DNA from: Candidatus Woesebacteria bacterium
GTDB taxonomy: Bacteria; Patescibacteriota; Microgenomatia; Woykebacterales; 2-01-FULL-43-14
Length of the DNA stretch: 64,000 nucleotides
Reading direction: 5' to 3'
Assembly (NCBI GenBank): GCA_020060105.1
Contig: JAGVAV010000023.1
Location: 14,905-78,904, forward strand
Positions 1-29,900 of this stretch are shown piece by piece. A program made the translations under genes and the position numbers. Position 1 is the stretch's first letter; each line of letters starts with the position of its first letter. The notes beneath the pieces were generated by a model that saw nothing but the letters and a program-made list of their open reading frames with translations, was not told where the DNA came from and made no database searches.

Positions 1-1
1 T

Positions 2-1873
2 AATCAAGTAGAAGTCCTTCTGTTTAAGCAAGCAATTGCTCAAGGATGGGATTGCCCGAGAGCAGCTATTTTATTACTTCAAAGAGAGTGGAACGCTGAA
101 AATTATGAATTTAACATCCAAACTCTTGGCCGAATAATGCGCATGCCAGAACAAAAGCACTACCAGAACCTCGTTTTAAACATTGGATACGTCTATACAG
201 CCTCTGATAACTTCAGTATTGTTGAAGATTTAGCCAAGGATTATGTAAGCAGAGTCCAAATGCTTAGGAACAATCAAATCTACAAACCAATTTTTCTACC
301 AAGTGAGTTTATAAGAAGAAAACGAGAAGTAACAAGGCTTTCAGGAAAATTTAAAGATTGTTTACTTGAAGCTAGTCAAGAAATAGACATGAGCAACAAA
401 ATCAACACAGGTATAGCTCAATTTAAAAAGGATATTGGGTTGGAAGGAACTCTTTCAAATATTAACAGGCTTCAGGAAGTTGAGTTTAGTTCTGTCGGAC
501 AAATATCGAAAGGTAGAGAAGAGGTTTTTTCTGAATATTCAAGTTTCCTTGCATCTCATACTTCACCATTTTCTAAAGCACGTTCAACCGAAATCTTAAA
601 AAGCAGTATGCGATCTTTGTTTAAACGAACTTTTGGAATAAGCAATGAGGATGAAATAGCCAATATTGTTATTAATCCAGTAAACAAAGATGCTTTCATC
701 GATCTTATCGACAAAGCTAAAGAAAAATATAAGTATCTACCAGAAAGAGAAGACGTTATTGTCACAGAGAAAGAATGGCAGATTCCAGAAAGTCTCAGTA
801 TTTTCGACAATTCTGATAAATTTAACCCTTCACAACGATCAATCATGCAGCCATTTAATGTAAAGGTTGATAAAAATTCTAGACTAAACCTTTCAAAACC
901 TGAAGTAACTTTTATTGAAGAGTTGGAAGGCACTGACAACGATATTCTTTGGTGGTTCAAGAATGGTGACAAAGAAAGCAAGTTCTTCGGAATTGCATAT
1001 AAAAAGGATGCTGGCTACTATGGTTTCTACCCAGATTTTCTTATTCAAACGAAAAAGGAACTTATTATAGTTGAAATAAAAGATAATCGTGATTTCAAAA
1101 ACGAGAACTTGTTAAAACTTAATGCTGGAAAAGAATATAGGAAAAAATATAAAGATTCACGTGGGCTATACTTTTTCATAATATCCCCAGACGATTATTA
1201 TAGATTCTTCCGCTGTTTAAAAGAGCAAGACATTTCCAACTTCAAATCTAAATACGAAGAGAACCTTACAAAATATAATCGAAGCCGTAAGGTTATTTCT
1301 GAAAAAACCAACGATTTATCAAAAGAAGATAAAGAATTATTAGAAATGTATGATGAAGAATTATCCAAAGCAATAAGAAACCTCGAAGATATAAAACTTG
1401 AAAAAGAAATTCTTGAAATTAACTTAAATGAAGCTAAATCAATTATCGATTCACTCAAGAAAAAAGAATCAGAGCTCGTAGAGCTAAAAGTTCCAAAGCC
1501 ATTTAACATTTGTATTTTAGGTGAAGTATCTGATGAAGATGAGGTTAAGAAAAGTTTGATGAGTTATTTCTCAAAATATGGCCTAAAGGCTACCGATTGG
1601 GAAGTAGAATTTTTTAACAACTCCAAATTAAAAAATAGTAACGTGTTAGTAGGATTAAAAAAGGGAAGGAGCCGTTACAGCCTTATCATCACAGGACAAA
1701 TTTACCATCATTCTGGAAAAGATAACCAAAGTGCAAACCTAGTTACTGAATTAAAAAAGCCACAATATATCGACTCGATAATTGGAAGTTCCCCAACAGA
1801 TCCATTAACACCCTCAAGCATGGTTGAAATGCTGGACCAGTACCTTTCGCCAGCAAGCTATGTTACAGCCTAA
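2..1873 (+). CDS. Type III restriction enzyme Res-like helicase/endonuclease, C-terminal part (5' end lies off the left edge), with an unusual ~270 aa coiled-coil-plus-extra-domain extension after the nuclease motif
   Basis: The frame is open from position 2. Helicase motif VI (QTLGRIMR) is followed ~300 aa later by a PD-(D/E)xK-like motif (YPDFLIQ...ELIIVEIKD). A coiled coil (EDKELLEMYDEELSKAIRNLEDIKLEKEILEINLNE) and a further ~130 aa domain follow. Confidence 0.55.
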   Translation, partial: NQVEVLLFKQAIAQGWDCPRAAILLLQREWNAENYEFNIQTLGRIMRMPEQKHYQNLVLNIGYVYTASDNFSIVEDLAKDYVSRVQMLRNNQIYKPIFLPSEFIRRKREVTRLSGKFKDCLLEASQEIDMSNKINTGIAQFKKDIGLEGTLSNINRLQEVEFSSVGQISKGREEVFSEYSSFLASHTSPFSKARSTEILKSSMRSLFKRTFGISNEDEIANIVINPVNKDAFIDLIDKAKEKYKYLPEREDVIVTEKEWQIPESLSIFDNSDKFNPSQRSIMQPFNVKVDKNSRLNLSKPEVTFIEELEGTDNDILWWFKNGDKESKFFGIAYKKDAGYYGFYPDFLIQTKKELIIVEIKDNRDFKNENLLKLNAGKEYRKKYKDSRGLYFFIISPDDYYRFFRCLKEQDISNFKSKYEENLTKYNRSRKVISEKTNDLSKEDKELLEMYDEELSKAIRNLEDIKLEKEILEINLNEAKSIIDSLKKKESELVELKVPKPFNICILGEVSDEDEVKKSLMSYFSKYGLKATDWEVEFFNNSKLKNSNVLVGLKKGRSRYSLIITGQIYHHSGKDNQSANLVTELKKPQYIDSIIGSSPTDPLTPSSMVEMLDQYLSPASYVTA

Positions 1874-1981
1874 TAACTTAAGAATTGTTAAAGCTGGGAA
1901 TGTAGATATAGCCGTTGTAACTTTGAACTGCAGTTCTAACGTTGTCTACAGTTTGCAGCCACTCGACCTCTTTGAAGAATA

Positions 1982-2016
1982 GGTGTGAACCTAACACACC
2001 CGGAGGGTGTGAAACC
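1982..2016 (+). repeat. Palindromic intergenic repeat, copy A (full-length GGTGTGAACCTAACACACCCGGAGGGTGTGAAACC)
   Basis: Exact 7-bp stem / 3-nt loop hairpin CACACCC-GGA-GGGTGTG. The 5' arm GGTGTG..CACACC can form an alternative hairpin. It is translated spuriously at the N-terminus of ORF 1985. Confidence 0.9.
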
Positions 2017-2059
2017 AATACTATTGCCACTCAAGCTTCGAAAAAGTATACTTAAAAAG

Positions 2060-2917
2060 ATGGATATTTTGATCTTTGGCACAGTTTGTATCGATCACAA
2101 TGTTACGGAAAGTGGAAAAATTACCTCTTGGGGCGGAACAGGAATGTTTATTTCCAAAATTCTCAGTCAACTCCCTCAAACCAATACAACTGTTATTTGC
2201 AACTACGGTCCTGACTATCTTGAATATCTTAAAGGTATAAATATTTATCCCTTATCACCGAGCGTTCCAAATACTTTAGTTTATGAAAACGTTAGCCAAG
2301 GAAAAACCCGGACTCAAAAAGCCTTATTTCGAGACAATTCCGAACCAGTGGAAATTACTCAAGATTTGAAATCAAAAATTGAAAATGCTCATATCATTTT
2401 CTTTGCCCCGCTGTTACCAAATCTTTCTACTGCTTATATCCACAAAGTGACGCAGCTTGCCAACAAAGAAAGTCTAAAAGTCCTTTTACCGCAAGGATAT
2501 TTTAGAAGCTTTGATAGTGAAGATAATGTCATACCACGAGACTTTCAGGAAGCGGCAGAAATGCTCCCTCTGGTAGATTTTGCCATCATCTCGGATCAAG
2601 ACACACAAGATGTGGATAATGTAGCACAAAACTGGGCGGAAAAAACAGGCGTTCAGGTTATTGTCACTAGGGGAGAGGATGGAGCAAGTATTATCTCTAA
2701 AGAAGAGAGCCAAGTAGTGCCAACTAAAGCGGTACCTCTGGAGGAAATCGTTGACTCCGTAGGCTCAGGCGATACCTTCAGCGCCGGTTTTGCCTATCAA
2801 TATTATTTAACCAAAGACATTACTAAAAGCCTTCGTTTCGCCAATAAACTAGCTGCCGCAAAACTTTATTTCAAACCAAAAGATATAAAGTTCGACTACG
2901 CAAAACTTCTAGACTAA
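2060..2917 (+). CDS. PfkB-family carbohydrate kinase (ribokinase-like)
   Basis: PfkB signature DSVGSGDTFSAGFAY near the C-terminus. ATG at 2060 (MDILIFGTVCIDH). The upstream part of ORF 1985 is a translation of the repeat. Confidence 0.8.
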   Translation: MDILIFGTVCIDHNVTESGKITSWGGTGMFISKILSQLPQTNTTVICNYGPDYLEYLKGINIYPLSPSVPNTLVYENVSQGKTRTQKALFRDNSEPVEITQDLKSKIENAHIIFFAPLLPNLSTAYIHKVTQLANKESLKVLLPQGYFRSFDSEDNVIPRDFQEAAEMLPLVDFAIISDQDTQDVDNVAQNWAEKTGVQVIVTRGEDGASIISKEESQVVPTKAVPLEEIVDSVGSGDTFSAGFAYQYYLTKDITKSLRFANKLAAAKLYFKPKDIKFDYAKLLD

Positions 2918-2934
2918 TTCGTCTAGTTTTTTTC
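2908..2934 (+). terminator. Putative intrinsic terminator of the pfkB-like gene
   Basis: Stem CTAGAC / GTCTAG with a 6-nt loop, followed by T7. It overlaps the stop codon. Confidence 0.4.
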
Positions 2935-2966
2935 AACCTTATCCCAGTTAACTATATTCCAAAACT

Positions 2967-2995
2967 AACCTAACACACCCGGAGGGTGTGAAACC
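2967..2995 (+). repeat. Palindromic intergenic repeat, copy B
   Basis: AACCTAACACACCCGGAGGGTGTGAAACC. Confidence 0.9.
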
Positions 2996-3182
2996 ATTAT
3001 CCGTTAGGTCCTATTTGTCTTTTGGAATTTTTTCCTACCGCTCGCTGACGAGATTACCATTTATTGATTATTCATGGACTCCAGGTCAAAGCGTTTAGTT
3101 TATTCAGTTTTAAAGGTATTTTAGAACAAATCTTCTCTAGATTACAAATTCCTGGTACAATAAATCCAGTTTGGAAGAAATT

Positions 3183-3704
3183 ATGAATGAAAATAATCTA
3201 GAAATACTTTCTTTACCTTTGGAAAGTTGGCAAGAGTATAAAGAACTTCGTTTGAGAGCTTTGCAGCGTGAACCCCAAGCGTTTGGATCTAATTATGCCC
3301 GAGAAGTTGAGTATCCAAACGAAAAATGGCAACAAAGAATCCAAGGAGTCATTGATGGTCAAGGTTTGATGCTATTTGCCAGATTAGACGGAAAACTTGT
3401 AGGCATGATTGGAGGATACCAAGATGACGACAATAAACCCCAAAAGAGAATTCAAATTTGGGGGATGTATGTTGATCCAGAAGCTCGCGGTAGAGGAATT
3501 GCAAAAACATTAATGAATAATCTAATTAGCAAAATCCGAGAGAGAGGAGATATTTTAATAGCTAAACTGGAAGTTAACGAAGACCAGGATCCAGCCAAAA
3601 AACTTTATGAGAATATGGGTTTCAAAATTGTTGGCACAAAAACAAGAGCTTTAGGAGATGGTAAAAAGCATCAGTTACTCGAAATGGAACTTGATCTTAT
3701 TTAA
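3183..3704 (+). CDS. GNAT family N-acetyltransferase
   Basis: GNAT motif A (QIWGMYVDPEARGRGIAKTLM). ATG at 3183; TTG at 3171 is an alternative start. Confidence 0.75.
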   Translation: MNENNLEILSLPLESWQEYKELRLRALQREPQAFGSNYAREVEYPNEKWQQRIQGVIDGQGLMLFARLDGKLVGMIGGYQDDDNKPQKRIQIWGMYVDPEARGRGIAKTLMNNLISKIRERGDILIAKLEVNEDQDPAKKLYENMGFKIVGTKTRALGDGKKHQLLEMELDLI

Positions 3705-3777
3705 GTTCACCCAACAGCACTTTTCTAACATACTTTGTGTTACTAGCACTTGTGCTGAGACCTATTGGAATATTAGT

Positions 3778-3803
3778 CTAACACACCCGGAGGGTGTGAA
3801 ACC
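3778..3803 (+). repeat. Palindromic intergenic repeat, copy C
   Basis: CTAACACACCCGGAGGGTGTGAAACC. ORF 3658-3861 is a spurious translation of it (LTHPEGVKP). Confidence 0.9.
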
Positions 3804-3811
3804 AGAAACCA

Positions 3812-4423
3812 TCATATTTTCAGCGTTGAAGAAACAAAGTCACAAAGAGGTTTGCCGATAGCTTTTTGCCAAAATTCATCTTGCTCTGACTGTTGCATCT
3901 CTGCAATATATTTACCACTTTCAGGATCAACTTGGAGGGACTCTAAAGGATACCCAGGAACAACTTTAGTGCTGATTTCACTTGTAAATACCCTAGGAGA
4001 AATGATATTTATTTCACCTAACGATCCTTGAGAATTAGCTATACAAACTCCAAATTCCCAATGTCCATTTATTCTTCCTCCCAATCTCTTAATAACTTCA
4101 GAATAATGTCTAAGTAAGTCTTCATCCGTTGGCCTTTTATCTCCATTACCAATCCTCCTAACATTTAGCCCTGGTTGTTGATCATCTGTTAATCCATCCA
4201 AATATAAGGCATTATCCATCGAGAGAATTGTCTGATTTAAAGCTTCTGCATAAGCTATAGCCTTCTTTCTAGCGTTCTCTATGGCTGTTTGACCGTCTTC
4301 ATCAACCTTGGGTAATAAATCCTTATTCTCTACACCTTTTACAGAAATATTAAGGGGAGCTAATGCACCAAGAATCTGTTTAACCTTAGCTTCATTGGTT
4401 GTCCCGACAATAATTTCTATCAT
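3812..4423 (-). CDS. Ham1/ITPase-like non-canonical NTP pyrophosphatase (divergent paralogue)
   Basis: N-terminal IIVGTTNEAKVKQ (compare ATGNxGK) and VDEDGQTAIENARKKA (compare ETGxTFxENAxxKA). Confidence 0.55.
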   Translation of the reverse strand: MIEIIVGTTNEAKVKQILGALAPLNISVKGVENKDLLPKVDEDGQTAIENARKKAIAYAEALNQTILSMDNALYLDGLTDDQQPGLNVRRIGNGDKRPTDEDLLRHYSEVIKRLGGRINGHWEFGVCIANSQGSLGEINIISPRVFTSEISTKVVPGYPLESLQVDPESGKYIAEMQQSEQDEFWQKAIGKPLCDFVSSTLKI

Positions 4424-4485
4424 TTCCTTTAATCCTGATAATCTTGAATATATCTTTCAAAATCCTCCACAGTTTGGACATAAAC

Positions 4486-5028
4486 TCATTCGAGTTCCTC
4501 TTTCTTTAACATCATTAAATACTTTTCCTCTTTTTCTGGTGGAACTTGAGTAGTTCTAAAATGTTTAAAGCCTACTTTTTCGTAAGATTTGATTGCTCTT
4601 ATATTCTTTAATTCTGGATCGACTATACAGGCACTTATTTCCCCTCTAACAAAAACAATCTCTTTAAGAAATTTTCTTAACATCCTACTACCCAAACCTT
4701 TACCCACAAACATCTGCTCGCCAATAAATAAATCTACACCGGCAATTCCCTCAGTACTTATATTTAACTGCAGAGAATAATCTGGGTAATCGCTTATTTT
4801 ATAAGTCTGAATAAAACCAAAAAGAGAATTTTCGTAGTAAACGATGTAACAATCAGTCGGTTCTTTTCCTTCAATACGAGGATTATATTTTTTAACGAGA
4901 GAATCAATATCACTTGCTTCGTCTCGCCCATACCATTCCTTTACAAAAGGTTCATTCAGCCATTTATGAAGCAGCGATAAATCATCAACTCGTAATCTTC
5001 GAAAAGAAATTTTATTTTCGTTCTGCAT
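4486..5028 (-). CDS. GNAT acetyltransferase resembling aminoglycoside 6'-N-acetyltransferase AAC(6')-Ib family
   Basis: WLNEPFVKEWYG, GKGLGSRMLRKFL and NIRAIKSYEKVGFK parallel the conserved AAC(6')-Ib blocks (WLNRPHIVEWWG / GKGLGTKLVRAL / NLRAIRCYEKAGF). Confidence 0.6.
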   Translation of the reverse strand: MQNENKISFRRLRVDDLSLLHKWLNEPFVKEWYGRDEASDIDSLVKKYNPRIEGKEPTDCYIVYYENSLFGFIQTYKISDYPDYSLQLNISTEGIAGVDLFIGEQMFVGKGLGSRMLRKFLKEIVFVRGEISACIVDPELKNIRAIKSYEKVGFKHFRTTQVPPEKEEKYLMMLKKEELE

Positions 5029-5194
5029 GAGTTAAGTATACCAATTTTCTCAAACAGTAATGAGTAGGGTAGTGGGGTAAGCACTAAAGTCGTAGGTTCT
5101 AAACATGTTGACCCCGGTTCAATCAAATCCCAATCAATCTTGGTTGACTACAGTCTGAATTACCAATCTGATCGCATAGTGATATAATACTTGC

Positions 5195-5533
5195 ATGATT
5201 ATTATCAAATCCGAACCTTACCTTCGGGAAGAAATAGAAAAACTTAAAGAACAGTTTGACGTTTATGTTAAAACAGTAATCGATGTTGAGAAAAAAGTTT
5301 GCTCGGCGGGAATGGGCAGGCACTATGAAGGTGAGGAGATCTTGATAAAACAAGGTTCGAAACAAAACGATATCTGGGGCGGGGGAGTCGATTTAGAAAC
5401 AAAAACAGTTGATTTTAACTCATTTATTAATATCAGGCCAAATCAAAGTAATCCCAGTAATGAAATCCTTGATCCAGTTTTAAGAAAAAAATATGAAGAT
5501 TTAACGAGGTATTTTTTCAAGGAAGTATTATGA
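5195..5533 (+). CDS. Small conserved hypothetical protein, first gene of a six-gene operon; apparently leaderless
   Basis: The ATG lies 6 nt after a TGATATAAT -10 element. The stop overlaps the next start (ATGA). Confidence 0.5.
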   Translation: MIIIKSEPYLREEIEKLKEQFDVYVKTVIDVEKKVCSAGMGRHYEGEEILIKQGSKQNDIWGGGVDLETKTVDFNSFINIRPNQSNPSNEILDPVLRKKYEDLTRYFFKEVL

Positions 5534-5832
5534 CTAGACAAGAGTTCGACACGTTAAACACCCTTGCTGCATTAGCTTTAGACTTAAAAAGAGCTTCTCT
5601 TGGAATTCACCGCGGGTCTATCCAAATGGCCAGACAGTTTGAAAAACAAGCCATGAATAGAAAAAACGAGATAAATCAAAATTACCTGAAAACGTATCTC
5701 CAACGCACCCTTAAGAAAACAGAGGAATCACTCCATTGTTCTGATGAAAAAAAGAAAGCCGAAGACCTTCTCACTTACAGCGTTATTTTCCAAAACTATG
5801 CCCAAAAGGCCCTGGCAGTAGAAATAAAATAA
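5530..5832 (+). CDS. Hypothetical protein (100 aa), translationally coupled
   Basis: ORF with a 4-nt overlap with the upstream gene; the next gene starts 5 nt downstream. Confidence 0.45.
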   Translation: MTRQEFDTLNTLAALALDLKRASLGIHRGSIQMARQFEKQAMNRKNEINQNYLKTYLQRTLKKTEESLHCSDEKKKAEDLLTYSVIFQNYAQKALAVEIK

Positions 5833-5836
5833 ACCT

Positions 5837-6361
5837 ATGACACAAAAACCAATCCAATATTTATTAGTGGGTCTCCCTTACTCGGGAAAGACTACATTAG
5901 CGAAAGAGCTAGTTAGTAGATTAGGATTTGCCTATATTAATATAGGCCAACTTAAGTGGGATAAGGGATATTCTGATGTTGGGGACGATGATGTCCCTGA
6001 TAAAGTATGGAAAGAAATCTTTGAAAAGGCGGATAAATTAATCCTTAAGTATTTAAACGAAGGAAAAAATCTGGCAAATGAGTATGCCTGGGTAACCAAG
6101 AAATGGAGAGACAGAGCAAGGAAAGTTGTCGCAAACGCAGGATTTGAAACAAGAACCATTTACCTGAAGATACCAGTAGAGGAAGTAAATAGAAGGTGGA
6201 TAGAAAACATTAAGACTAAAAATCACTTTCATTGGCCTAAAGATGAATTTAATAATTACTTAAGGGATTTTGAAGAACCAACTTTGGAAGAAAATGTGAT
6301 ATTGTATGATCAATCTATTCCTTTTGATAATTGGGTAAAGAAAAATAACTTTTATGGATGA
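5837..6361 (+). CDS. AAA_33-like P-loop kinase (polynucleotide / small-molecule kinase fold)
   Basis: Walker A GLPYSGKTTLAKEL. Size of 174 aa and layout fit the AAA_33 / zeta-toxin-like kinase class. Confidence 0.6.
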   Translation: MTQKPIQYLLVGLPYSGKTTLAKELVSRLGFAYINIGQLKWDKGYSDVGDDDVPDKVWKEIFEKADKLILKYLNEGKNLANEYAWVTKKWRDRARKVVANAGFETRTIYLKIPVEEVNRRWIENIKTKNHFHWPKDEFNNYLRDFEEPTLEENVILYDQSIPFDNWVKKNNFYG

Positions 6362-7336
6362 TTTAAGAACGGTAGTAAATCAAATCGTTAGTAAAAGTGT
6401 GGAGTTAAAAAATAAATATACCGAAGAAAAAACCGCTCCCGTAGAGTTTGCTTGCATTTTTTGCCAAACAGACGAAGAATATAAAAAATTTACTGATGAA
6501 GTTAAAGAACTAGGAAAAGTGGTTGAAGATACTCCAACGGGATTTACTTATTTATTAAGTGAACCTCTTCAAACTATTGCCGGCCCTTTAAGCCTAGTAA
6601 AAATAAGAATGCCTGAAAAATCAAGGAAAGAAAGAGGGGACGCTGACTTCAATACAAACTATTCAGAATTTAAAAATAAATATTTAAACCAGCCAAATTT
6701 TGAGTTAATTAAGCGAGACAACTTTGAAATGCTGCGATTATCGGAACCAGGCAACAATGTTATGGTCTGCTTCTCAAATACCCCTAAGAGCAAACTTTTC
6801 GGCATCCCCACTCAAGAGGAGAATCAGTTAAAATATTCCTTCAAACGGTACGAAGATTTCTTTCCGGAACTCTTTGAACAAGAGAAAAAAGACTAAGCGA
6901 CTTTTTGCCCGAACCTTATCGAATTGAGCATGTCGGCAGTACAGCCGTAGTTGGATTAGGAGGTAAAGGAATAATCGATATTTTGATCTCCGTTCCTAGA
7001 GAGAAAATGGGTGAGTATTCATCAAAATTACGAGAAGCTGGATATGTTTTTAGCCCTCAAGCATGTACAAAAGACAGATATTTTTACAAGCAGGATATAG
7101 AAACTGCCAAATATCGGACCAGAAGATTTCACATACACCTTACTTACCCGAGTAGTCAAGACGAACAAGAAACTTTGGCCTTTAGGGATTATCTTCGAAA
7201 CCACCCGGAAGAGGTAAAAAGATATTCCGATATTAAGGAAGAGGCAGGAGCTTTAGATAACGTTAACAAAAAAACGTACTGGGCCAAAAAGGAACCTGTG
7301 TTTCGAGATATTCTGTCGAAGGCGTTAAAAGAATGA
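6354..7336 (+). pseudogene. Unknown N-terminal domain fused to a GrpB-family (UPF0157) nucleotidyltransferase-fold protein; reading frame broken by a -1 shift at an A6 tract (6885-6890)
   Basis: The GrpB N-terminal block (KRYEDFFPELFEQEKK) ends ORF 6354-6896 in frame 0. The GrpB core (IEHVGSTAVVGLGGKGIIDILI) continues in frame 2 from 6905. One extra A in the tract would give the in-frame junction EQEKKRLSDFLPEPY, which matches GrpB. Confidence 0.55.
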
Positions 7337-7357
7337 GTAATATGGTATAAATTAGTT

Positions 7358-8017
7358 ATGAATATCGAATTTGAAGCCACATTTCCAAACGTTGATAAAG
7401 ATAAAATTAGAGAAAAACTACGAAAGATAAATGCACAGTTAGTCAAACCTGAATTGTTACAAAAAAGGTCCGTCTATCGTTTACCTTCGGGACATGAAAT
7501 TAATGGAGGCTGGTTAAGAGTGAGAGACGAGGGAGATAAGGTTACAATGAGTTTAAAAGTAGTAGACGGCGACAAAATAGAAAACCAAAAAGAAGTTTGT
7601 TTGACTGTAGATAATTTTAAACAAGCAGAGTTACTTTTAATTACAATAGGTTGCGAGAAAAAAGCGTACCAAGAAAGCAAAAGAGAGCTATGGAAATTTG
7701 ATAATGTTGAAATTACTATCGATGAGTGGCCGTTTCTTGAGCCATTTGTAGAAATAGAAGGAAAGTCAAAACAAGAAGTAAAGAAAGTTTCGGAATTACT
7801 TGGTTTTGAATTTAATAAAGCGTTATTTTGTGCCGTAGATACTCTATACAGCCAAAAATACGCAATTTCAAAAGACTGGATCAATAACAAAACACCCTCA
7901 ATTGTTTTTAATGAAGAAAACCCTTTCTTAAACAATAGTAAGTTGAGTGGTGGGGTAAGCCTCCCATTTAAAGGTTCTAAAGATGTTGACACAGACAACC
8001 ATTCGACTTCGTCCTGA
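7358..8017 (+). CDS. CYTH-domain protein (triphosphate tunnel metalloenzyme / class IV adenylate cyclase-like)
   Basis: N-terminal MNIEFEATF...K..R (CYTH ExExK signature) and WLRVRDEGDKVTMSLK. The last ~40 codons overlap an inverted-repeat region and may not be real. Confidence 0.55.
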   Translation: MNIEFEATFPNVDKDKIREKLRKINAQLVKPELLQKRSVYRLPSGHEINGGWLRVRDEGDKVTMSLKVVDGDKIENQKEVCLTVDNFKQAELLLITIGCEKKAYQESKRELWKFDNVEITIDEWPFLEPFVEIEGKSKQEVKKVSELLGFEFNKALFCAVDTLYSQKYAISKDWINNKTPSIVFNEENPFLNNSKLSGGVSLPFKGSKDVDTDNHSTSS

Positions 8018-8115
8018 GTAAAATCGAGGGACTTCGTTCATAGTCTTTGACCACTTGTTAACAACGGCAACTTTATATCTTTCACAAGTCGAATGTCTCG
8101 AGCGAAGTCGAGAGG
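7995..8115. repeat. Nested inverted repeats at the 3' end of the operon (CATTCGACTTCG / CGAAGTCGAG / CAAGTCGAATG)
   Basis: Complementary segments seen directly in the sequence. Possible terminator or structured RNA. Confidence 0.35.
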
Positions 8116-8201
8116 CCATATCATTTTATCTTGTCCTATCTAGAAAACAAAATACTTAGAAATAAAACAGGCGTGAAAACCACCTCAACATGTTTATAAT
8201 T

Positions 8202-8230
8202 GACTTACTGCTTTGTCTTCAGTATAATCT
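8202..8230 (+). promoter_or_regulatory. Sigma-70-like promoter TTGACT-17-TATAAT
   Basis: Consensus hexamers with a 17-nt spacer, upstream of the G9 tract and the small ORF. Confidence 0.45.
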
Positions 8231-8256
8231 CAACTACAATAAACGAGGGGGGGGGA

Positions 8257-8373
8257 ATGAACACTCAAACGACTTCAACAACGCTGTGGAAGCATCTCCT
8301 AAGCAACGCTAAAACTCCCAAAACCTTACCGTCATTTTTCCACAAATGGCGGTCTTTCTTTAATATCCCTTGA
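8257..8373 (+). CDS. Putative 38-aa small protein whose ribosome-binding region is a G9 homopolymer
   Basis: ATG 1 nt after GAGGGGGGGGG (the G run is 8247-8255). ORF reads MNTQTTSTTLWKHLLSNAKTPKTLPSFFHKWRSFFNIP. It is below the ORF-track size cutoff. Confidence 0.25.
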   Translation: MNTQTTSTTLWKHLLSNAKTPKTLPSFFHKWRSFFNIP

Positions 8374-8565
8374 AGTAAACTAAATCTGCAAGAAAGCTTA
8401 AAAATCAACCGTCAACATTACTTAACCACATTTGAGAAAGACCCAAGAAAAAATCTCTAAGTAAGAATAATCTTTATCACAAGGTAAGGAGACTAACCTG
8501 CTAGAATGTTGTAAACACTCCAAGAAAAAACTATTTTTATCTTTAGTTCCCTTTGGTGATCGTCT

Positions 8566-9114
8566 ATGGATCAAAATATCCAACCCTTTGACTTACAACG
8601 CATGTTTTTTGGAGACTATCCTCTGCTTTTCCTACTGGAAGTCCTCTTCAGAACAGCCTTCATGTACCTTTATATGCTGCTAGCTTCCAGATTTCTTGGA
8701 AAACGAGGAGTCGGACAGCTTACTCCATTCGAATTTATTATCGTTATCGTCTTAGGCTCGGCGGCAGGGGACCCGATGTTTTATCCTCAGGTATCTCTGC
8801 TCCAGGGAGTAGCCGTCATAACAGTCGTAGTATTGCTCGAAAAGGTAATTGCCGAACTATCTCAAAGAAACAAGAAGCTGGAACATATCATACAGAGCAC
8901 CCCACAACTTTTAGTCAAAAACGGACAAGTTCTGGATAAAGCTTTAAATGAATCTGGACTAACCAAACAAGAGCTGTTAATGCAGCTTCGAACGGAAAAC
9001 ATAAGAGATATCGGTGAGGTAGAATACGCTTACCTTGAACCGATGGGAAAACTAAGCGTTTTTAAGCTAGAAGGGGGGAAAGAAAAGAAAGTAGAAACTA
9101 CTCTCCCACAATAA
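8566..9114 (+). CDS. DUF421 (YetF-like) membrane protein
   Basis: LGKRGVGQLTPFEFIIVIVLGSAAG is typical of DUF421. Confidence 0.6.
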   Translation: MDQNIQPFDLQRMFFGDYPLLFLLEVLFRTAFMYLYMLLASRFLGKRGVGQLTPFEFIIVIVLGSAAGDPMFYPQVSLLQGVAVITVVVLLEKVIAELSQRNKKLEHIIQSTPQLLVKNGQVLDKALNESGLTKQELLMQLRTENIRDIGEVEYAYLEPMGKLSVFKLEGGKEKKVETTLPQ

Positions 9115-9131
9115 CCATTAGATAATATTAT

Positions 9132-9157
9132 GAACCTAACACACCCGGAGGGTGTGA
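9132..9157 (+). repeat. Palindromic intergenic repeat, copy D (3' end diverged)
   Basis: GAACCTAACACACCCGGAGGGTGTGA. Confidence 0.85.
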
Positions 9158-9233
9158 GTGCAAGTTGTCAATAGTTCCAGCTTAGGTCAATTTGTTTGTT
9201 GAATCCATTTTTCCCTAAAACTAAAATTCCAGC

Positions 9234-11918
9234 ATGCCGAATAAACCAATTTGCGATATTTGTCATATCCGACCCGCTACTCATACCATCCAAGTATCTA
9301 GAAATGGAAAAAGGGAAATAATCCAAGTTTGCGACGTCGATTACCAAAACGCTATAGAGCAACGAGGTTTTTTCTCACCCTTTGAGTCTTCCTTTGGTGC
9401 AGACCCTTTCGGATTCTCCTCTGATTACTACGATAATTTTGAAAACCTTTCTTCTCGGATAGGTTTTCCCATTCCCAGACACCGTGAATCCGTCGACATT
9501 GACCAGTTCTTCTCCGAACACACCAAAGAACTGATTCAAAAAGCTGCTCAAAAGGTCATTGAGTCTGGCAGAAACGAACTTGACACTGAGCATCTTCTGT
9601 ACGCCCTTATTGATAGCGATGTCATTACCGAAATCTTGGAACAATTCAATATCAATCCAAAAGATCTTAAAGGATACGTTGAAGACAACATCCCAAAAGG
9701 CAGGTTAGATAAGAAGGAAAAAGCCGAAGTCACTGTCTCTCCAAGAGTAAAAAATGTTATCGAAAAAGCCTTCGAAGTTTCTCGAGAAATGGGACATAGC
9801 TATATCGGTCCCGAACATTTGTTATTAGGGCTGGCAATGGAAGAAGATGGCTTGGCCTACGATATTCTAAAAAGCTACGGGTTAAATGCAAATGCCATTC
9901 GGCAACAAACGTTAAAAGTGGTTGGTCGAGGAGCGAAGGAAGGCCGAGTCGAAACTAAAACCAAGACGCCTCAACTCGACAAATATTCCCGCGATTTATC
10001 CAGGTTAGCCAAAGAAGGAAAACTAGACCCGGTTATCGGCAGATCCGATGAAATTGAGACAACGATTGAAATTCTCTCTCGAAGAACAAAAAATAATCCC
10101 GCATTGATCGGAGAACCCGGCGTCGGAAAAACAGCGATAGTTGAAGGACTAGCCCAAAGAATTGAAAACCGCGACGTTCCGGAAGTGTTGCTGAATAAAA
10201 GAGTGGTCGAATTTAATATCAATTCCATTGTCGCCGGATCTAAGTACCGAGGAGAATTTGAGGAAAGAATTAAAGAAGTCATCGACGAGATAGTTGTTCA
10301 TAAAGACGAATTGATTATTTTCGTTGATGAGCTGCATAACATTGTCGGTGCCGGAGCAACCGGAACGGAAGGTGGCCTAGATGTCTCTAACGTAATCAAA
10401 CCCTACCTGGCCCGGGGAGAACTTCACCTGATCGGAGCCACCACTCTAAATGAGTACCAGAAATATATTGAAAAAGACATGGCTTTGGAACGAAGATTTC
10501 AGCCTGTCTTTATTTCCGAACCGACCGTCCTCCAAACAATTGAGATTCTTCGCGGATTGCGGGACAAGTATGAAGCTCATCACAAAGTTAAAATTACAGA
10601 TGAGGCGATCGTTGCCGCAGCCGAACTTTCAAATAAATATATTAGTACCCGCTTCTTGCCTGATAAGGCAATCGATCTCGTGGACCAAGCCGCTTCTAGA
10701 GTGAGAATCCTTTATGCTTCGAAACCAGAAACCGTCAAAAAAATCGAAGAAAAAGTGACCCGATTAAAGAGGGAAGAAGAATCAGCCACTTCTCGAAGAC
10801 AATACGATCAAGCGAAAAGGTACGCTGAGGAAATTCAAGCCCTAGAAAAAAATATTGAAGAAGAAAGGGCTAACTGGCGAAGAGAAAGGGGAGTTACCAC
10901 CGGCGAAGTGAAAAAGGAACACATTGCTCAAATCGTTTCCAAAATCACAGGTATTCCTGTAACTGACCTTACGCAAGAAGAAAGAGAACGGCTTTTGAAA
11001 ATGGAAGAAAAACTTCACCAGCGAGTCATTGGTCAAAACGAAGCAGTTACCGCTGTTTCGGACGCGGTTCGTCGCTCCCGAGCAGGCTTAACGAGTGGAA
11101 AACACCCAATTGCCACCCTTATGTTTCTCGGCCCAACCGGGGTGGGAAAAACCGAACTGGCTAGATCTCTGGCGTGGGTCATTTTTGGGGATGACGAAGC
11201 CTTGATTCGATTGGATATGAGCGAGTATAGGGAAAGGCACTCTGTTTCTAGATTAATCGGCGCTCCACCGGGCTATGTGGAGTATGAAGAAGCCGGGCAA
11301 CTCACCGAATCCATTCGAAGACGGCCTTACAGCGTTGTCTTGCTTGATGAGATTGAAAAAGCCCATCCAGACGTTTTCAATATTCTTTTACAGGTTTTAG
11401 ACGACGGCCGGCTCACTGACAGTAAAGGACGAACGGTTGATTTTACCAATACTATTATTATCGCCACAAGCAATCTCGGCTCTGATATTATTTACAAAAA
11501 TTTAATGACCAAGCAGAAAAAATCTTACGAAGAATTAAGAGGGGAGTTAAATATTTTACTCAAGAATTACTTCCGACCAGAGTTTTTGAACCGAACCGAT
11601 GAAATTATTGTTTTTCATGCTCTCACTGAAGAAGAAATAAAGACCATTACTAAGCTTCGGTTAGAAAGACTTAAGGTAATGGCTCGGGGGCAGGGAATTG
11701 ATCTTTCTTTCGATAAATCGGCCGTTGAACACATCGCCAAAGAAGGCTTTGCCCCAGAATTTGGAGCGCGAGAACTTCAAAGAAAAATCAAAACAGAGAT
11801 CGAAAACCCTCTCGCTAAAGAAGTGTTGAGCGGAAAAATAAAAGAAGGGGAGAAAATCGTGGCTTTTTTCGATCCTGTAAATCATGTTTTCAATTTTTCC
11901 CATTCAGCTTCTCCCTAA
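9234..11918 (+). CDS. clpC: ATP-dependent Clp protease ATP-binding subunit ClpC/ClpA-type, with an N-terminal Cys/His-rich extension
   Basis: Clp_N repeats (EHLLYALI, EHLLLGLA). Two AAA modules (GEPGVGKTAIVEGLA; GPTGVGKTELARSLA). N-terminal CDICHIRPATH...VCDVDY. Confidence 0.9.
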   Translation: MPNKPICDICHIRPATHTIQVSRNGKREIIQVCDVDYQNAIEQRGFFSPFESSFGADPFGFSSDYYDNFENLSSRIGFPIPRHRESVDIDQFFSEHTKELIQKAAQKVIESGRNELDTEHLLYALIDSDVITEILEQFNINPKDLKGYVEDNIPKGRLDKKEKAEVTVSPRVKNVIEKAFEVSREMGHSYIGPEHLLLGLAMEEDGLAYDILKSYGLNANAIRQQTLKVVGRGAKEGRVETKTKTPQLDKYSRDLSRLAKEGKLDPVIGRSDEIETTIEILSRRTKNNPALIGEPGVGKTAIVEGLAQRIENRDVPEVLLNKRVVEFNINSIVAGSKYRGEFEERIKEVIDEIVVHKDELIIFVDELHNIVGAGATGTEGGLDVSNVIKPYLARGELHLIGATTLNEYQKYIEKDMALERRFQPVFISEPTVLQTIEILRGLRDKYEAHHKVKITDEAIVAAAELSNKYISTRFLPDKAIDLVDQAASRVRILYASKPETVKKIEEKVTRLKREEESATSRRQYDQAKRYAEEIQALEKNIEEERANWRRERGVTTGEVKKEHIAQIVSKITGIPVTDLTQEERERLLKMEEKLHQRVIGQNEAVTAVSDAVRRSRAGLTSGKHPIATLMFLGPTGVGKTELARSLAWVIFGDDEALIRLDMSEYRERHSVSRLIGAPPGYVEYEEAGQLTESIRRRPYSVVLLDEIEKAHPDVFNILLQVLDDGRLTDSKGRTVDFTNTIIIATSNLGSDIIYKNLMTKQKKSYEELRGELNILLKNYFRPEFLNRTDEIIVFHALTEEEIKTITKLRLERLKVMARGQGIDLSFDKSAVEHIAKEGFAPEFGARELQRKIKTEIENPLAKEVLSGKIKEGEKIVAFFDPVNHVFNFSHSASP

Positions 11919-12020: not shown

Positions 12021-13001
12021 ATGAGTGACCAGAACATTAAGTGGAACAATAAAGTTAAGCTTGTTTTAGCCGATGTCGATGAGACGATAGCGGATGTTTA
12101 TACTCCCGCGGAGCCGGAAATGATCGGAGAACTAACCTCTGTCCTTGAAGAAGGGGTAGTTATCTTTTTCGTTACAGGAGCAAGCCTCGCGAGGGTCGAA
12201 TCGAGAATTACTAATCAAATTCCAGGCCATCTGAGAAGATTTACATTAGTAAGCCACTGTAACGGGGCAGAAGTATGGGGGTTTAATAGCGAGGGAGATA
12301 AAAAGGAGAAGCCCTTTTACAGTCTCTATGATGAAACTTTTTCCCAACAACAAAAAGATAAATGGCGAGAAATTGTCAAACAACTAATTGAAGAGTTTAA
12401 ACTCTCGGTCTACCCGGCAACTAAAGTTTCGGAGTTTAAAACGATGGCTGGCCATAATCCGCTAGCCGTAATGCTCGAAGATAGAGGACCGCAAATAACT
12501 TTTGAATTTGTTAACGGTTATGACCTCACACCGGAACAGGAAAAACAGCTAGAAATGTCCGTGCCACAAACTAATGGAGCACTAGATTTAAGAATTCCGG
12601 TGCTCGAAAGAGCAGATCGCCTGTTTCAAGAAAATAATATTCCGGTTACGCCAAGATTAGGAGGAATATTTGCCCTAGATTTTGCCATAAAAGGGGTATC
12701 AAAAACCTACTCAGTAAAGCACGTTCTCGAAAATGAAAATATCCTTGAGTCTGCCGGTTTATCAAGACAAGATTTAGAAAATCCAGATCACATTGAGATC
12801 TGGGGCGATAAATTTGATCAATTTAGAGGCGGCACGGATCGGCATATGTGCGAGGCGGTAAACCCAAAGGTTAGAGCGATTGACTTTCGTGAGGAAGACC
12901 CTTCCGGTTTTCTTCCTGGCTACAACGTGGTAATTTGGAAGGGAAAATATCACCTACACCATGGTTTACTAGAGTATCTTAAATCTCGACATAACAAGTA
13001 G
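12021..13001 (+). CDS. HAD-superfamily hydrolase (IIB-like phosphatase)
   Basis: Motif I LADVDETIAD (DxDxT). A distal GDKFDQ acidic motif. Confidence 0.6.
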   Translation: MSDQNIKWNNKVKLVLADVDETIADVYTPAEPEMIGELTSVLEEGVVIFFVTGASLARVESRITNQIPGHLRRFTLVSHCNGAEVWGFNSEGDKKEKPFYSLYDETFSQQQKDKWREIVKQLIEEFKLSVYPATKVSEFKTMAGHNPLAVMLEDRGPQITFEFVNGYDLTPEQEKQLEMSVPQTNGALDLRIPVLERADRLFQENNIPVTPRLGGIFALDFAIKGVSKTYSVKHVLENENILESAGLSRQDLENPDHIEIWGDKFDQFRGGTDRHMCEAVNPKVRAIDFREEDPSGFLPGYNVVIWKGKYHLHHGLLEYLKSRHNK

Positions 13002-13030
13002 GTGTGAACCTAACACACCCGGAGGGTGTG
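13001..13030 (+). repeat. Palindromic intergenic repeat, copy E (full 5' arm)
   Basis: GGTGTGAACCTAACACACCCGGAGGGTGTG immediately after the HAD stop codon. Confidence 0.9.
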
Positions 13031-13149
13031 TTAGTGGAGTTACAAGTCGGGGCTAGCCCTGATCCAATCGGGGCTGGCGGATCAAGTTAAATGGGTGTAT
13101 AATTCTTTCCAACGAGAACAAAATTCAGATTGGAAGGAGGGTGAGAGCC

Positions 13150-22790: not shown

Positions 22791-23798
22791 ATGAGCAAGA
22801 TAATTCAAACCGTCTGTACCCTTGGCCCGGCTTCTCAAAAACCTGAGACTTTAGAAAAGTTAATCTCTTCCGGCATGAACATTGCCCGTTTCAACTTTTC
22901 TCACACGACCCCAGAACAGTTTCTTCGTATTAAAAGCTTAATTGAAAAATATAACCAAAAACTAGGTAAAAAGACAAAAATTCTCCTAGATCTCCAAGGA
23001 CCAAGAATGAGAGTCGGGCTCTTACCTGAAGAAGGTCTTAACTTAAAGGAAGGGGAGGAAGTGACTTTTTCGACGGGTCTTTCGGATAATAGGGCCATCC
23101 ACATCGATAATCCACACCTTCATGAAGATATAGAGCCTGGCCAGCCAATGTATCTTTCTAATGGAGAAATCGAACTTAAGGTCGTTTCTAAAAAGGGCAA
23201 TAAAATCATGGCTAAGGTTCTGATTGGGGGAGTACTTTATTCCAGAAAAGGGGTCAATGTCCCGGAAACCAAAACACGAGCCAGGGGATTGACCGATAAA
23301 GATCTAAAGGACGTTAAACTTGGAGTAGAAAATGGAGTGGATTTCATCGCCTTATCGTTTGTAGGGGACAAGTCCGACGTTAGAGAACTTCGTGAAAAAA
23401 TCAATGACCCGACTACCGGAATCGTGGCAAAAATCGAAAGAAGGGCGGCGATCGCTAACCTAGAAAAAATCATCAAAGCCTCTGACTTAATAATGGTCGC
23501 TCGAGGGGACCTGGGAGTTGAGTTTCCTTTGCCAGAAATTCCGTTTTTACAAAAAGAAATAATTAGTAAAGCAAATCGTTTTGACAAACCGGCGATCGTC
23601 GCGACCCAAATGCTTGCCAGCATGGTCAATCATCCGCATCCCACCCGAGCCGAAGTCACTGATGTAGCTAATGCCGTCCTAGACGGGGCTTGGGGCGTGA
23701 TGCTTTCCCAAGAAACTGCCTTTGGCCATTACCCGGTCCAGTCTCTGGATTACCTCACCAAGATCACCCAACGAGCGGCACAATTTTCTTCAGGTTAA
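22791..23798 (+). CDS. pyk: Pyruvate kinase lacking the C-terminal regulatory domain
   Basis: Pyruvate kinase active-site block MVARGDLGVEFPLPEIP...ETAFGHYP. The protein ends ~30 aa later at 335 aa; typical PKs exceed 460 aa. Confidence 0.8.
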   Translation: MSKIIQTVCTLGPASQKPETLEKLISSGMNIARFNFSHTTPEQFLRIKSLIEKYNQKLGKKTKILLDLQGPRMRVGLLPEEGLNLKEGEEVTFSTGLSDNRAIHIDNPHLHEDIEPGQPMYLSNGEIELKVVSKKGNKIMAKVLIGGVLYSRKGVNVPETKTRARGLTDKDLKDVKLGVENGVDFIALSFVGDKSDVRELREKINDPTTGIVAKIERRAAIANLEKIIKASDLIMVARGDLGVEFPLPEIPFLQKEIISKANRFDKPAIVATQMLASMVNHPHPTRAEVTDVANAVLDGAWGVMLSQETAFGHYPVQSLDYLTKITQRAAQFSSG

Positions 23799-25527: not shown

Positions 25528-25842
25528 TTAAAACTTGATAAAAGACTGGTTTCCAAAGTAGAAATTAAAAGCTTTCAGCAGGTCTGTTAGATCAAAGTTT
25601 GGTTTTTGAGTAGCTACATTATTAACTATTTCCTTGAGGACTTGAACGCTCAAGGTATATTTTAGATTGTTCTCTTCAGCAAAGGTAGGTTCCTCACCCT
25701 TCTTAACACGATCATCATTTAAAATGATACACTTGGTACTTTCATGGAAAACAGGGGCTTGTTCACAGTAGAGAGAGCCTTTCCAGAACAGTTTATTGGC
25801 GTTGATTAAAATGTCAGAAAGCTTTTGAGGTTTTGGTTGCAT
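25528..25842 (-). CDS. Hypothetical protein
   Basis: ORF only; divergent from arsR. Confidence 0.4.
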   Translation of the reverse strand: MQPKPQKLSDILINANKLFWKGSLYCEQAPVFHESTKCIILNDDRVKKGEEPTFAEENNLKYTLSVQVLKEIVNNVATQKPNFDLTDLLKAFNFYFGNQSFIKF

Positions 25843-26040
25843 TAAGACGATTATACCAGAAAACTGCCGAAATGTACATTTAGCTTCGCCGTTTTACGCT
25901 TAGTATAAGTTCGGAAGGGGGACGTTTCTCTTTTGAATACGAAATTGGTTAATTTTTTAAGTTAACGGCTTCCTAACGATACACTCTTAATCTCTTTCCT
26001 TCTCCTTGACACCTGCCAACCCTTCCCTTATCATAAATAT

Positions 26041-26352
26041 ATGAATAAATGTTCATATAACTGCTGTAATCCCGACAGTTATGAATTTCAAAGAGTAATT
26101 AGCCTATCTTCTTTACTAAAAATCGTCTCCGAAGAAAGCCGATTAAAAATACTTTGCATTTTGAAAGAAGGGGAGCACTGCGTTTGTGAAATAATAAATC
26201 ACCTCTCATTATCCCAAAGTCTTATTTCCCATCACCTAAGAGATTTAAAAGATTTTAACGTTGTTTCCGATCACAAAAGGGGAAACAGGGTTTATTACTC
26301 ATTAACAAAACAGGGCAGAAAATTTGCCGATATTTTATTTAGCTTAGATTAA
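26041..26352 (+). CDS. arsR: ArsR/SmtB family metalloregulator
   Basis: HTH with the metalloid-binding CVCEI motif (compare ELCVCDL). TTGACA-17-TATCAT promoter ending ~7 nt before the ATG, so possibly leaderless. Confidence 0.8.
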   Translation: MNKCSYNCCNPDSYEFQRVISLSSLLKIVSEESRLKILCILKEGEHCVCEIINHLSLSQSLISHHLRDLKDFNVVSDHKRGNRVYYSLTKQGRKFADILFSLD

Positions 26353-26363
26353 GGGAGGTCTTT

Positions 26364-26663
26364 ATGAAAATCGAAGTTTTAGGTTCCGGATGTAACAACT
26401 GCAAAAAGCTCTATGACCTGACTAATCAGGCAGTTAAAGAATTAAACCTCGAGGCCGAGGTTGAGTACATAACTGATATCAAAAGGTTAGTTGAAATGGG
26501 GATAATGCAAAGCCCTGCCCTCGCCATTGACGGGGTTGCGGTAATGACGGGCGCGACAACAAACCTCGAGAAAATCAAAGAGGTCCTTCAAAAAGATAAA
26601 TCGGATAATTCAGCCAACGGCTGCCAAAACAAAACTTGTCGTTGTCATAACGGCTGCTGCTAA
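26364..26663 (+). CDS. Thioredoxin-fold redox-active disulfide protein 2 with a Cys-rich C-terminal tail
   Basis: GSGCNNC active-site motif. Tail is NGCQNKTCRCHNGCC. Confidence 0.7.
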   Translation: MKIEVLGSGCNNCKKLYDLTNQAVKELNLEAEVEYITDIKRLVEMGIMQSPALAIDGVAVMTGATTNLEKIKEVLQKDKSDNSANGCQNKTCRCHNGCC

Positions 26664-26668
26664 CGCAT

Positions 26669-29871: not shown

Positions 29872-29900
29872 AACCTATCACACCCGGAGGGTGTGAAACC
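29872..29900 (+). repeat. Palindromic intergenic repeat, copy F
   Basis: AACCTATCACACCCGGAGGGTGTGAAACC. Confidence 0.9.

Follow-up and report, generated by a model that had tools for sequence, protein, structure and literature searches.

A stretch of 64,000 nucleotides from contig JAGVAV010000023.1 (positions 14,905 to 78,904; hereafter the window) begins with a segment of 8,610 nucleotides that is low in guanine plus cytosine (GC), and that carries part of a Type III restriction gene followed by a series of small enzyme genes. The compositional anomaly of this segment is real and statistically strong. We favor, with some reservation, the view that it is the part, within the window, of an accessory region gained by horizontal transfer, i.e., the partly decayed remnant of a genomic island, headed by a Type III restriction-modification (R-M) module. 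An earlier sequence-only reading of the same DNA had described an AT-rich accessory island with a short repeat at its right boundary. The atypical composition and the cargo of restriction and small-molecule or nucleotide-modifying genes stood up to analysis, while the repeat as a boundary did not, and island status is plausible but unproven.

The GC content is 0.360 over positions 1-8500, compared with 0.454 over 8501-64000; extending the segment to 8610 gives 0.359, compared with 0.454 for the remainder of the window. The top single GC change-point of the entire window is found at 8580-8640, with a log-likelihood gain of ~138, and no 8.5-kb interval outside the left segment falls below 0.423. 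Recursive segmentation divides the window into six segments with GC contents of 0.359, 0.431, 0.490, 0.447, 0.526 and 0.452, of which 1-8610 is the most extreme. The step is placed in the gap at 8018-8565, ahead of a YetF-family gene (8566-9114; GC3 0.40, where GC3 is the GC content at third codon positions). The 11 open reading frames (ORFs) in 2-8017 have GC3 values of 0.25-0.40, with a mean of 0.307, compared with a mean of 0.481 for 53 ORFs elsewhere (Mann-Whitney p = 3.4e-7). The first and second codon positions of the segment ORFs (GC1 and GC2) are likewise reduced, and the effect is strongest at silent sites. The GC-normalized tetranucleotide signature of 1-8000 gives r = 0.81 with the remainder of the window, compared with r = 0.93-0.96 for all 8-kb blocks lying clear of the segment. 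Since the signature deviates after normalization for GC, the anomaly is more than one of base content. All these comparisons take as background the remaining 55 kb of the window rather than the genome in full. The earlier statement that the first ~8.5 kb is lower in GC than the rest is thus borne out by GC, change-point, segmentation and GC3; over the 64-kb window the segment is atypical in both GC and tetranucleotides, and composition is not uniform.

What does the segment encode? At its left end frame 2 is open from base 1, and the window contains the last 623 codons, i.e., the 3′ two-thirds, of the res gene for an 882-aa source protein (P0127, 100% identical). Full-length P0127 matches Type III restriction endonuclease models with E = 9e-16 and also matches ResIII, and P0128, a relative of 63% identity, matches the Type III models with E = 2e-22. 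Helicase motifs V-VI are present, motif VI (QTLGRIMR) lying at about 119-142. The PD-(D/E)xK nuclease motif (FYPDF...VEIKD, at about 1031-1081) is located C-terminal to the helicase and is at least 95% conserved in 28 aligned sequences; Pfam additionally returned a weak TnsA-like nuclease match. In both relatives examined (loci L040 and L129), a gene for a methyltransferase of ~570 aa overlaps the start of res by 4 nt, and the methyltransferase of L040 matches the Type III Mod model with E = 2.6e-86; on the source contig the corresponding place falls to the left of the window. Taken together, the REase_III matches, the Mod overlap in relatives and the conserved nuclease motif support the call of a Type III Res-like helicase-nuclease, in agreement with the fragment proposed from the sequence alone.

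The Mod-Res pair of L129 has genes for a tyrosine integrase and a DnaD/HTH protein beside it, and the module lies 4-7 GC points under its flanks. The adjoining integrase indicates that the module therefore travels on integrative elements. Relatives of res at 55-63% identity are scattered among Patescibacteria, Ignavibacteria, Omnitrophica, Nitrospirae and Cloacimonetes. As called, P0127 is without the 42 N-terminal residues bearing the Walker A motif (QAPTGxGKT), which are present in 27 of 27 aligned relatives. The restriction subunit is possibly inactive, to judge from this absence, and the cause of the lost N-terminus could be truncation, frameshift or the contig edge. Members of the res family (~938 aa) have ~230 additional C-terminal residues past the nuclease, comprising a coiled coil and a conserved domain without family assignment. 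In the window this extension occupies 1400-1873 (P0127 residues ~720-882), where we observe a domain of ~130 aa with the motifs PKPF.I..LG and GQIYHHS...N.SAN; its only match was a marginal one to PADLOC PDC-S57.

The cargo that follows is accessory rather than core in character, as judged with Pfam, NCBIfam and Foldseek, the list with the R-M gene comprising GNATs, kinases, VOC, GrpB and CYTH proteins. Pfam and NCBIfam agree with the sugar kinase, two GNATs, ITPase-like protein, P-loop kinase, GrpB and CYTH that had been named from the sequence, and three ORFs absent from the earlier gene list are added, i.e., DUF5674 (5195-5533), a 100-aa ORF (5530-5832) and a 180-aa VOC-fold ORF (6354-6896). 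The matches to curated equivalog models are all far under cut-off, so the specific substrates cannot be named. The Ham1 gene could be a house-keeping gene. For the PfkB gene the mechanical ORF from GTG 1985 traverses a hairpin repeat, and the likely start is ATG 2060, with a promoter-like site at 2024-2052 ahead of it; a terminator-like hairpin with a T7 run is found at 2909-2926. The coordinates of all features are collected in Table 1.

Table 1. Features of the low-GC segment and its right flank, with the evidence for each
Feature	Position	Strand	Evidence and remarks
Low-GC segment	1-8610		GC 0.359; left edge beyond the window; right edge in the 8018-8565 gap / YetF gene start; change-point, segmentation, GC3
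res, 3′ part (623 codons), Type III restriction gene	2-1873	+	P0127 100% identical; REase_III E = 9e-16; motif conservation in 28 sequences; weak TnsA-like nuclease match
Hairpin repeat copy 1	1991-2012	+	CTAACACACCCGGAGGGTGTGA, 7-bp stem, 3-nt loop; exact
PfkB-family sugar/nucleoside kinase	2060-2917	+	Pfam PfkB 8.8e-21; NCBIfam matches all under cut-off
Hairpin repeat copy 2	2970-2991	+	Exact
GNAT acetyltransferase (Acetyltransf_1)	3171-3704	+	Pfam 8.3e-23
Hairpin repeat copy 3	3778-3799	+	Exact; in the gap on which the GNAT and Ham1 genes converge
Ham1/RdgB-like non-canonical NTP pyrophosphatase, divergent	3812-4423	-	Pfam Ham1p_like 8.4e-11; NCBIfam under cut-off
GNAT, Acetyltransf_8 / AAC(6')-like	4486-5028	-	Pfam 1.1e-21; TIGR04431 88.8 bits vs cut-off 260
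Direct repeat copy A, ~67 nt	5046-5112	+	Divergent promoter gap
DUF5674 protein, first operon gene	5195-5533	+	Pfam 1.5e-20; promoter-like site 5160-5188 ends 6 nt 5′ of ATG
100-aa all-helical ORF	5530-5832	+	4-nt overlap with DUF5674 stop; AF2 pLDDT 52
P-loop kinase (AAA_33)	5837-6361	+	Pfam 2.5e-11; tight ~170-aa family in Gottesmanbacteria, Shapirobacteria
VOC-fold (YecM-like) domain + GrpB domain	6354-7336	+	VOC 6354 to ~6818; two ORFs, 6354-6896 and 6905-7336; frame analysis
CYTH (triphosphate tunnel metalloenzyme) protein	7358-8017	+	Pfam 9.4e-8; TIGR00318 37.9 bits vs cut-off 57.95
Direct repeat copy B, ~67 nt	7924-7990	+	Overlaps CYTH 3′ tail
Right-edge gap without long ORFs	8018-8565	+	Promoter 8200-8228, G9 run 8247-8255, 38-codon ORF 8257-8373, hairpin 8328-8353
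Hairpin repeat copy 4	9136-9157	+	Exact; outside low-GC segment, between YetF and ClpC-like genes
Hairpin repeat copies 5, 6	13010-13031; 29875-29896	+	One mismatch each

Between 5195 and 8017 neighboring genes overlap or are separated by 4-21 nt, an arrangement suggestive of a single operon. A literature search found no paper on DUF5674, the product of the first gene. The 100-aa ORF that follows has no match in Pfam, NCBIfam, PADLOC or PHROG, and its AlphaFold2 (AF2) model is unusable, with a predicted local distance difference test (pLDDT) score of 52; by direct reading it contains an Rx5H string, which prompted the idea of a HEPN protein. At the other end of the operon, the CYTH ORF is ~40-60 aa longer than the CYTH domain, and its 3′ tail runs into the second copy of a direct repeat of ~67 nt. 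This repeat consists of two blocks with 81% and 95% identity at equal spacing and brackets the 2.9-kb DUF5674-to-CYTH operon only, which suggests a separate insertion or duplication within the segment.

The VOC-like domain of this operon (residues 1-152 of ORF 6354-6896) belongs to a rare family, with 222 representatives among 1.84e9 proteins that are mostly stand-alone and ~155 aa in length, and by sequence it matches nothing in Pfam or the PDB. An AF2 model calculated with 74 sequences has a pLDDT of 96.8. Searching with residues 1-155 of the model, Foldseek finds E. coli EC4020 (1K4N) with a template modeling (TM) score of 0.70 and E = 1e-7, together with other glyoxalase, bleomycin-resistance and dioxygenase members. 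On the basis of this predicted structure we are confident that a rare unannotated family carries a YecM-like VOC fold.

The same ORF runs stop-free from the VOC domain into the N-terminus of GrpB (...YEDFFPELFEQEKK), and the GrpB match in ORF 6905-7336 (Pfam 9.6e-33) starts at profile position 28, so that positions 1-27 are missing from it. GrpB is broken by a 1-nt frameshift at the A6 run 6885-6890, and one added A joins both parts. The frameshift is either gene decay (a pseudogene) or a homopolymer assembly error. A GrpB part is absent from all 14 longer proteins related to the VOC-like domain; the arrangement is therefore local, i.e., a run-on with a frameshift, and a fusion to GrpB as a recurrent architecture of this family was rejected. 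With the res gene that, as called, lacks its Walker A N-terminus, the frameshifted GrpB forms the signs of decay in the segment.

Is this set of genes found together elsewhere? We screened 81 loci with an orthologue of the P-loop kinase against all the island proteins, and found no recurrent neighbors, and a conserved operon was rejected on this ground. In one of these loci a GrpB gene lay at a distance of 3 kb, and in one a CYTH gene directly followed a kinase of 31% identity (L088, 834-1882). In a contig of 420 kb from an organism of the Patescibacteria/CPR type (L041, 5674-16378) a kinase orthologue of 67% identity lies within a run of three NUDIX genes with phosphatase, DinB, deaminase, HD, MazE-PIN, GNAT, SDR and HAD genes.

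The view that we favor would have the following course. Into an uncultured host of ~45% GC would have come a region headed by a Type III R-M module, with miscellaneous small genes modifying sugars, nucleotides or other small molecules after it, i.e., two kinases, two acetyltransferases, an NTP pyrophosphatase, a VOC-fold protein, a GrpB nucleotidyltransferase-fold protein and a CYTH triphosphatase. The donors would have been lower-GC organisms, most likely other Patescibacteria, in more than one event, and arrival may have been on an integrative element like that beside the Mod-Res module in L129. The operon between the copies of the 67-nt repeat would be a separate insertion or duplication. 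Partial inactivation would have come later, together with colonization by a dispersed hairpin repeat of the host. Acquisition is supported by the composition, by an R-M family that is scattered over several phyla and linked to an integrase in one relative, by the lack of a conserved gene order, by the signs of decay in two genes, and by a GC deficit of the kinase gene in excess of its family norm. Genomic islands, including an R-M island, are common in Patescibacteria and take up to 13% of genome length (PMC12455944).

A number of observations weigh against a horizontally acquired island. The left boundary is beyond the window. There is no integrase, transposase or other mobility gene among the window ORFs scanned (~15 small ORFs outside the segment were not scanned), no tRNA in the 64-kb window, and no island-specific flanking direct repeat in the window, the 67-nt repeat being internal only. 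No blastn match to phages or plasmids was obtained and no orthologues were found on viral contigs, on which basis a phage or plasmid origin was rejected. In the collections searched there was no relative closer than ~70% protein identity; the window proteins that were looked up are alone or nearly alone in 90%-identity clusters, and the relatives at 69-70% that were examined are not syntenic with the window. The closest relatives of the kinase (60-73%) and of the ClpC-like gene in the right flank (65-71%) come from one broad group. The best matches of the kinase are named Gottesmanbacteria and Shapirobacteria, those of res Patescibacteria, Parcubacteria, Nomurabacteria and Paceibacterota, and those of the ClpC-like gene Parcubacteria and Saccharimonadales; from these names only, the host probably belongs to the Patescibacteria or candidate phyla radiation (CPR), and any transfer was probably within this group. 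Since island and flank genes find their best matches in one broad group, best-match taxonomy does not single out the island. Lastly, the window is a GC mosaic by segmentation, and small genes of this sort are AT-richer than their flanks in other genomes as well.

Several of these points are also expected if the segment is a native variable region, in which weakly expressed, dispensable and long-resident genes have drifted to AT by mutational bias and relaxed selection, such that the low GC reflects the class of gene and not a foreign origin. This is the strongest of the alternatives, and we regard it as possible, if distinctly the less probable account. Orthologues of the kinase gene (5837-6361) in 14 other genomes are on average 4.1 ± 3.0 GC points under their surroundings. 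Low GC also occurs elsewhere in the mosaic window, as in the ArsR/thioredoxin/ArsP cluster at 25-27.6 kb, and a comparable run of small enzymes surrounds the kinase orthologue in L041. The shared best-match group of island and flank, the presence of the host hairpin repeat inside the segment, and the frameshift and truncation, which fit relaxed selection, can all be accommodated. However, the deficit observed here goes well past the family norm, amounting to 11 GC points under background for the kinase gene and 17 points in GC3 overall, and the step at ~8600 is sharp. The GC-normalized tetranucleotide signature deviates as well. Moreover, at the head of the segment stands an R-M module whose counterpart in a relative is linked to an integrase, and the gene order of the segment is conserved nowhere. 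For these reasons we prefer an acquired region to a native one.

A second alternative is that the segment is a defense island, in which res and the neighboring small enzymes (the kinase, GrpB, CYTH, the GNATs, and DUF5674 with the helical ORF) act jointly or in parallel against phages. The Type III res at the left end and the tight packing of the operon, with overlaps of 4-8 nt, are in keeping with this; the ATGA overlap of DUF5674 and the 100-aa ORF resembles a toxin-antitoxin pair, the 100-aa ORF has the Rx5H string noted above, and one distant kinase (L088) has an adjacent CYTH. Yet PADLOC recognizes only res, plus a marginal match of DUF5674 to a DNA-binding model (E = 1.6e-4), and PHROGs give only generic kinase and GrpB matches. 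The operon genes do not co-occur in the 81 loci, and no usable structure of the 100-aa ORF could be predicted. We consider joint defense improbable. The cargo genes of the acquired region probably act independently (house-cleaning, salvage, detoxification) rather than as one system.

The hairpin repeat bears on both the boundary and the origin of the segment. Its 22-nt core, CTAACACACCCGGAGGGTGTGA, folds as a perfect 7-bp stem with a 3-nt loop, and is present in six copies that are all intergenic and all on the + strand, three inside and three outside the segment, with five of the six in the first 13 kb; none is expected by chance (0 in 100 shuffles). The hairpin energies of the copies range from -11 to -17 kcal/mol. 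Conservation spans ~30 nt, the three inside copies being identical over 27 nt, while the three outside copies each diverge in the 3′ flank. No copy was found in 121 loci from relatives or in viral contigs. A search of Rfam with the repeats and the right-edge gap gave no match at the gathering score, and one chance-level match at E < 1. A plain intrinsic terminator was rejected, there being no + strand T-run after the hairpin, and the terminator of the PfkB gene sits upstream of the repeat. The element behaves as a repetitive extragenic palindromic (REP)-like dispersed intergenic element of this genome. The sequence-only reading had placed three copies inside the island and a fourth at its right boundary at 9132. 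Those positions are correct, but with six copies in all, lying both inside and outside, and a GC step at ~8600 that precedes the copy at 9136 by ~520 nt, the hairpin repeat does not delimit the island.

Two further features of the repeat were observed. In the region 12995-13039, the copy at 13010 is a near-perfect 25-nt palindrome, CTAACACACCC-GGA-GGGTGTGTTAG. The copies at 1991 and 13010 have an extra upstream GGTGTG that could pair with CACACC instead, a possible three-segment switch-like arrangement.

Could the hairpins be sites of gene capture? In an integron-like cassette array the 30-nt hairpin would be an attC-like site bracketing single-gene cassettes, in the order 1991-[PfkB]-2970-[GNAT]-3778. 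Two single genes are indeed each bracketed by near-identical, co-oriented repeats, the GNAT, the VOC fold and the small enzymes resemble cassette cargo (an integron-cassette protein is among the Foldseek matches of the VOC domain), and by direct reading ACCTAAC fits the RYYYAAC inverse-core pattern. However, attC sites are ~55-140 nt in length with extrahelical bases, and the hairpin here has only the 7-bp stem and 3-nt loop. No integron integrase or tyrosine recombinase was found among the scanned ORFs (~15 small ORFs elsewhere in the window were not scanned). A promoter-like site and a terminator belong to PfkB itself, and elsewhere the repeat flanks units that are large or comprise several genes, among them the 894-aa ClpC-like gene; the absence of the hairpin from the related loci and viral contigs also speaks against capture. 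With no integrase found and the hairpin too short, an integron was rejected, and we give it very little weight. Hardly more credible is a variant in which the 30-nt hairpin would be the recombination site, a minimal attC, of an undescribed integrase-distant gene-capture system in a CPR-type bacterium that assembled the AT-rich region and brackets PfkB, the GNAT and larger units.

Equally remote is an assembly or binning chimera, in which a fragment of a lower-GC organism was misjoined at ~8.6 kb. In its favor, the contig derives from a metagenome, the segment is situated toward one end of the window and the sharp GC step falls in a non-coding gap. Against it, three copies of the 22-nt repeat are present to either side of the junction, and so is the unusual promoter geometry; identical repeats either side of the step are good evidence for one genome.

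The promoter geometry is seen in promoter-like sites at 2024-2060, 5160-5197 and 9199-9236, where the -10 hexamer lies 6-7 nt 5′ of the ATG of PfkB, DUF5674 and the ClpC-like gene. Judged from this position of the -10 hexamer alone, the arrangement points to leaderless transcripts to the left and right of the GC step. Promoter-like sites as a whole are not in excess, numbering 28 compared with 31.2 in shuffles. In the right-edge gap a near-consensus promoter, TTGACT-17-TATAAT (8200-8228), is followed by the G9 run, the 38-codon ORF (MNTQTTSTTLWKHLL...) and the terminator-like hairpin at 8328-8353. We predict that 8200-8373 is a small stand-alone transcription unit at the right edge of the island.

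Beyond the gap, the ClpC-like gene (9234-11918, + strand) encodes a protein of 894 aa with a cysteine-rich N-terminal extension (CDICHIRPA...VCDVDY). Its nearest relatives, 65-71% identical, are labeled Parcubacteria, Saccharimonadales, Bathyarchaeia and Conexivisphaerales, and those in L036, L038 and L039 have as neighbors, in loci that are not syntenic, genes of the HSP20, trypsin-like, YfdX and NfeD-type protease classes. Scanning the genome collection with this gene gave matches of at most 50% identity from mixed phyla. Such neighborhoods give it the appearance of a stand-alone stress disaggregase that moves horizontally, and not of core clpC. It had been cited earlier as a GC-richer core gene; it is indeed GC-richer than the segment, but with its 65-71% relatives spread across phyla and archaea in non-syntenic stress loci it is a poor stand-in for the core genome. 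The stretch to its right, up to ~27.8 kb, is itself somewhat GC-poor (0.431).

Two other loci in the right part of the window may be recorded. A second, smaller low-GC patch at 25528-27646, with GC down to 0.36, encodes DUF7716, an ArsR-family regulator, a thioredoxin-like protein and an ArsP permease, and is another accessory-type unit. The pyruvate kinase ORF at 22791-23798 is 335 aa in length, with only the barrel domain of the enzyme matched and the usual C-terminal domain apparently missing.

If the segment is indeed an acquired island, it provides a further example of a documented pattern, whereby small-genome uncultured bacteria gain restriction systems and small enzymes horizontally, some of which decay; no new principle is involved. 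The value lies in annotation. A frameshifted GrpB and a possibly truncated res are flagged, a VOC fold is assigned to a rare unannotated protein family, and a dispersed hairpin repeat is found unfit as an island boundary.

How does the segment compare with known systems? As in integron arrays and clusters of attC sites lacking integron integrases (CALINs), small accessory genes are here each followed by a conserved hairpin in one orientation. The differences are that no integrase turned up among the scanned ORFs, that the hairpin falls far short of the length of an attC with R''/L''-L'/R' boxes, that at least one "cassette" has its own promoter and terminator, and that the repeats also flank large multi-gene units. 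The resemblance to REP or miniature inverted-repeat transposable element (MITE)-like palindromic repeats is closer, the element being a short, GC-rich, perfect intergenic hairpin in several near-identical copies with ~30 nt conserved; the six copies here differ in being co-oriented and five-sixths confined to the first 13 kb, with no RAYT-type transposase seen in the window and no Rfam match. Residues 1-155 of ORF 6354-6896, as modeled with AF2, can be superposed on EC4020 (1K4N) of the YecM/VOC fold proteins, yet without a Pfam or PDB sequence match, and the domain here runs into GrpB, which it does in none of 14 longer relatives.

The res gene differs from Type III R-M systems (Mod-Res, of the EcoP15I type) in the ~230 extra C-terminal residues of its family and, for the copy here as called, in the lack of the Walker A N-terminus. 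Otherwise it follows their plan, with a superfamily 2 (SF2) helicase (ResIII) and then a PD-(D/E)xK nuclease, REase_III matches, and Mod overlapping the start of res in relatives. Compared with the published genomic islands of Patescibacteria/CPR (PMC12455944), the window has no integrase or defined ends, and its R-M gene is of Type III whereas the published example is of Type I. In other respects the two are alike, each being an atypical accessory block with an R-M gene, a cargo whose order is not conserved, and donors that are probably other Patescibacteria.

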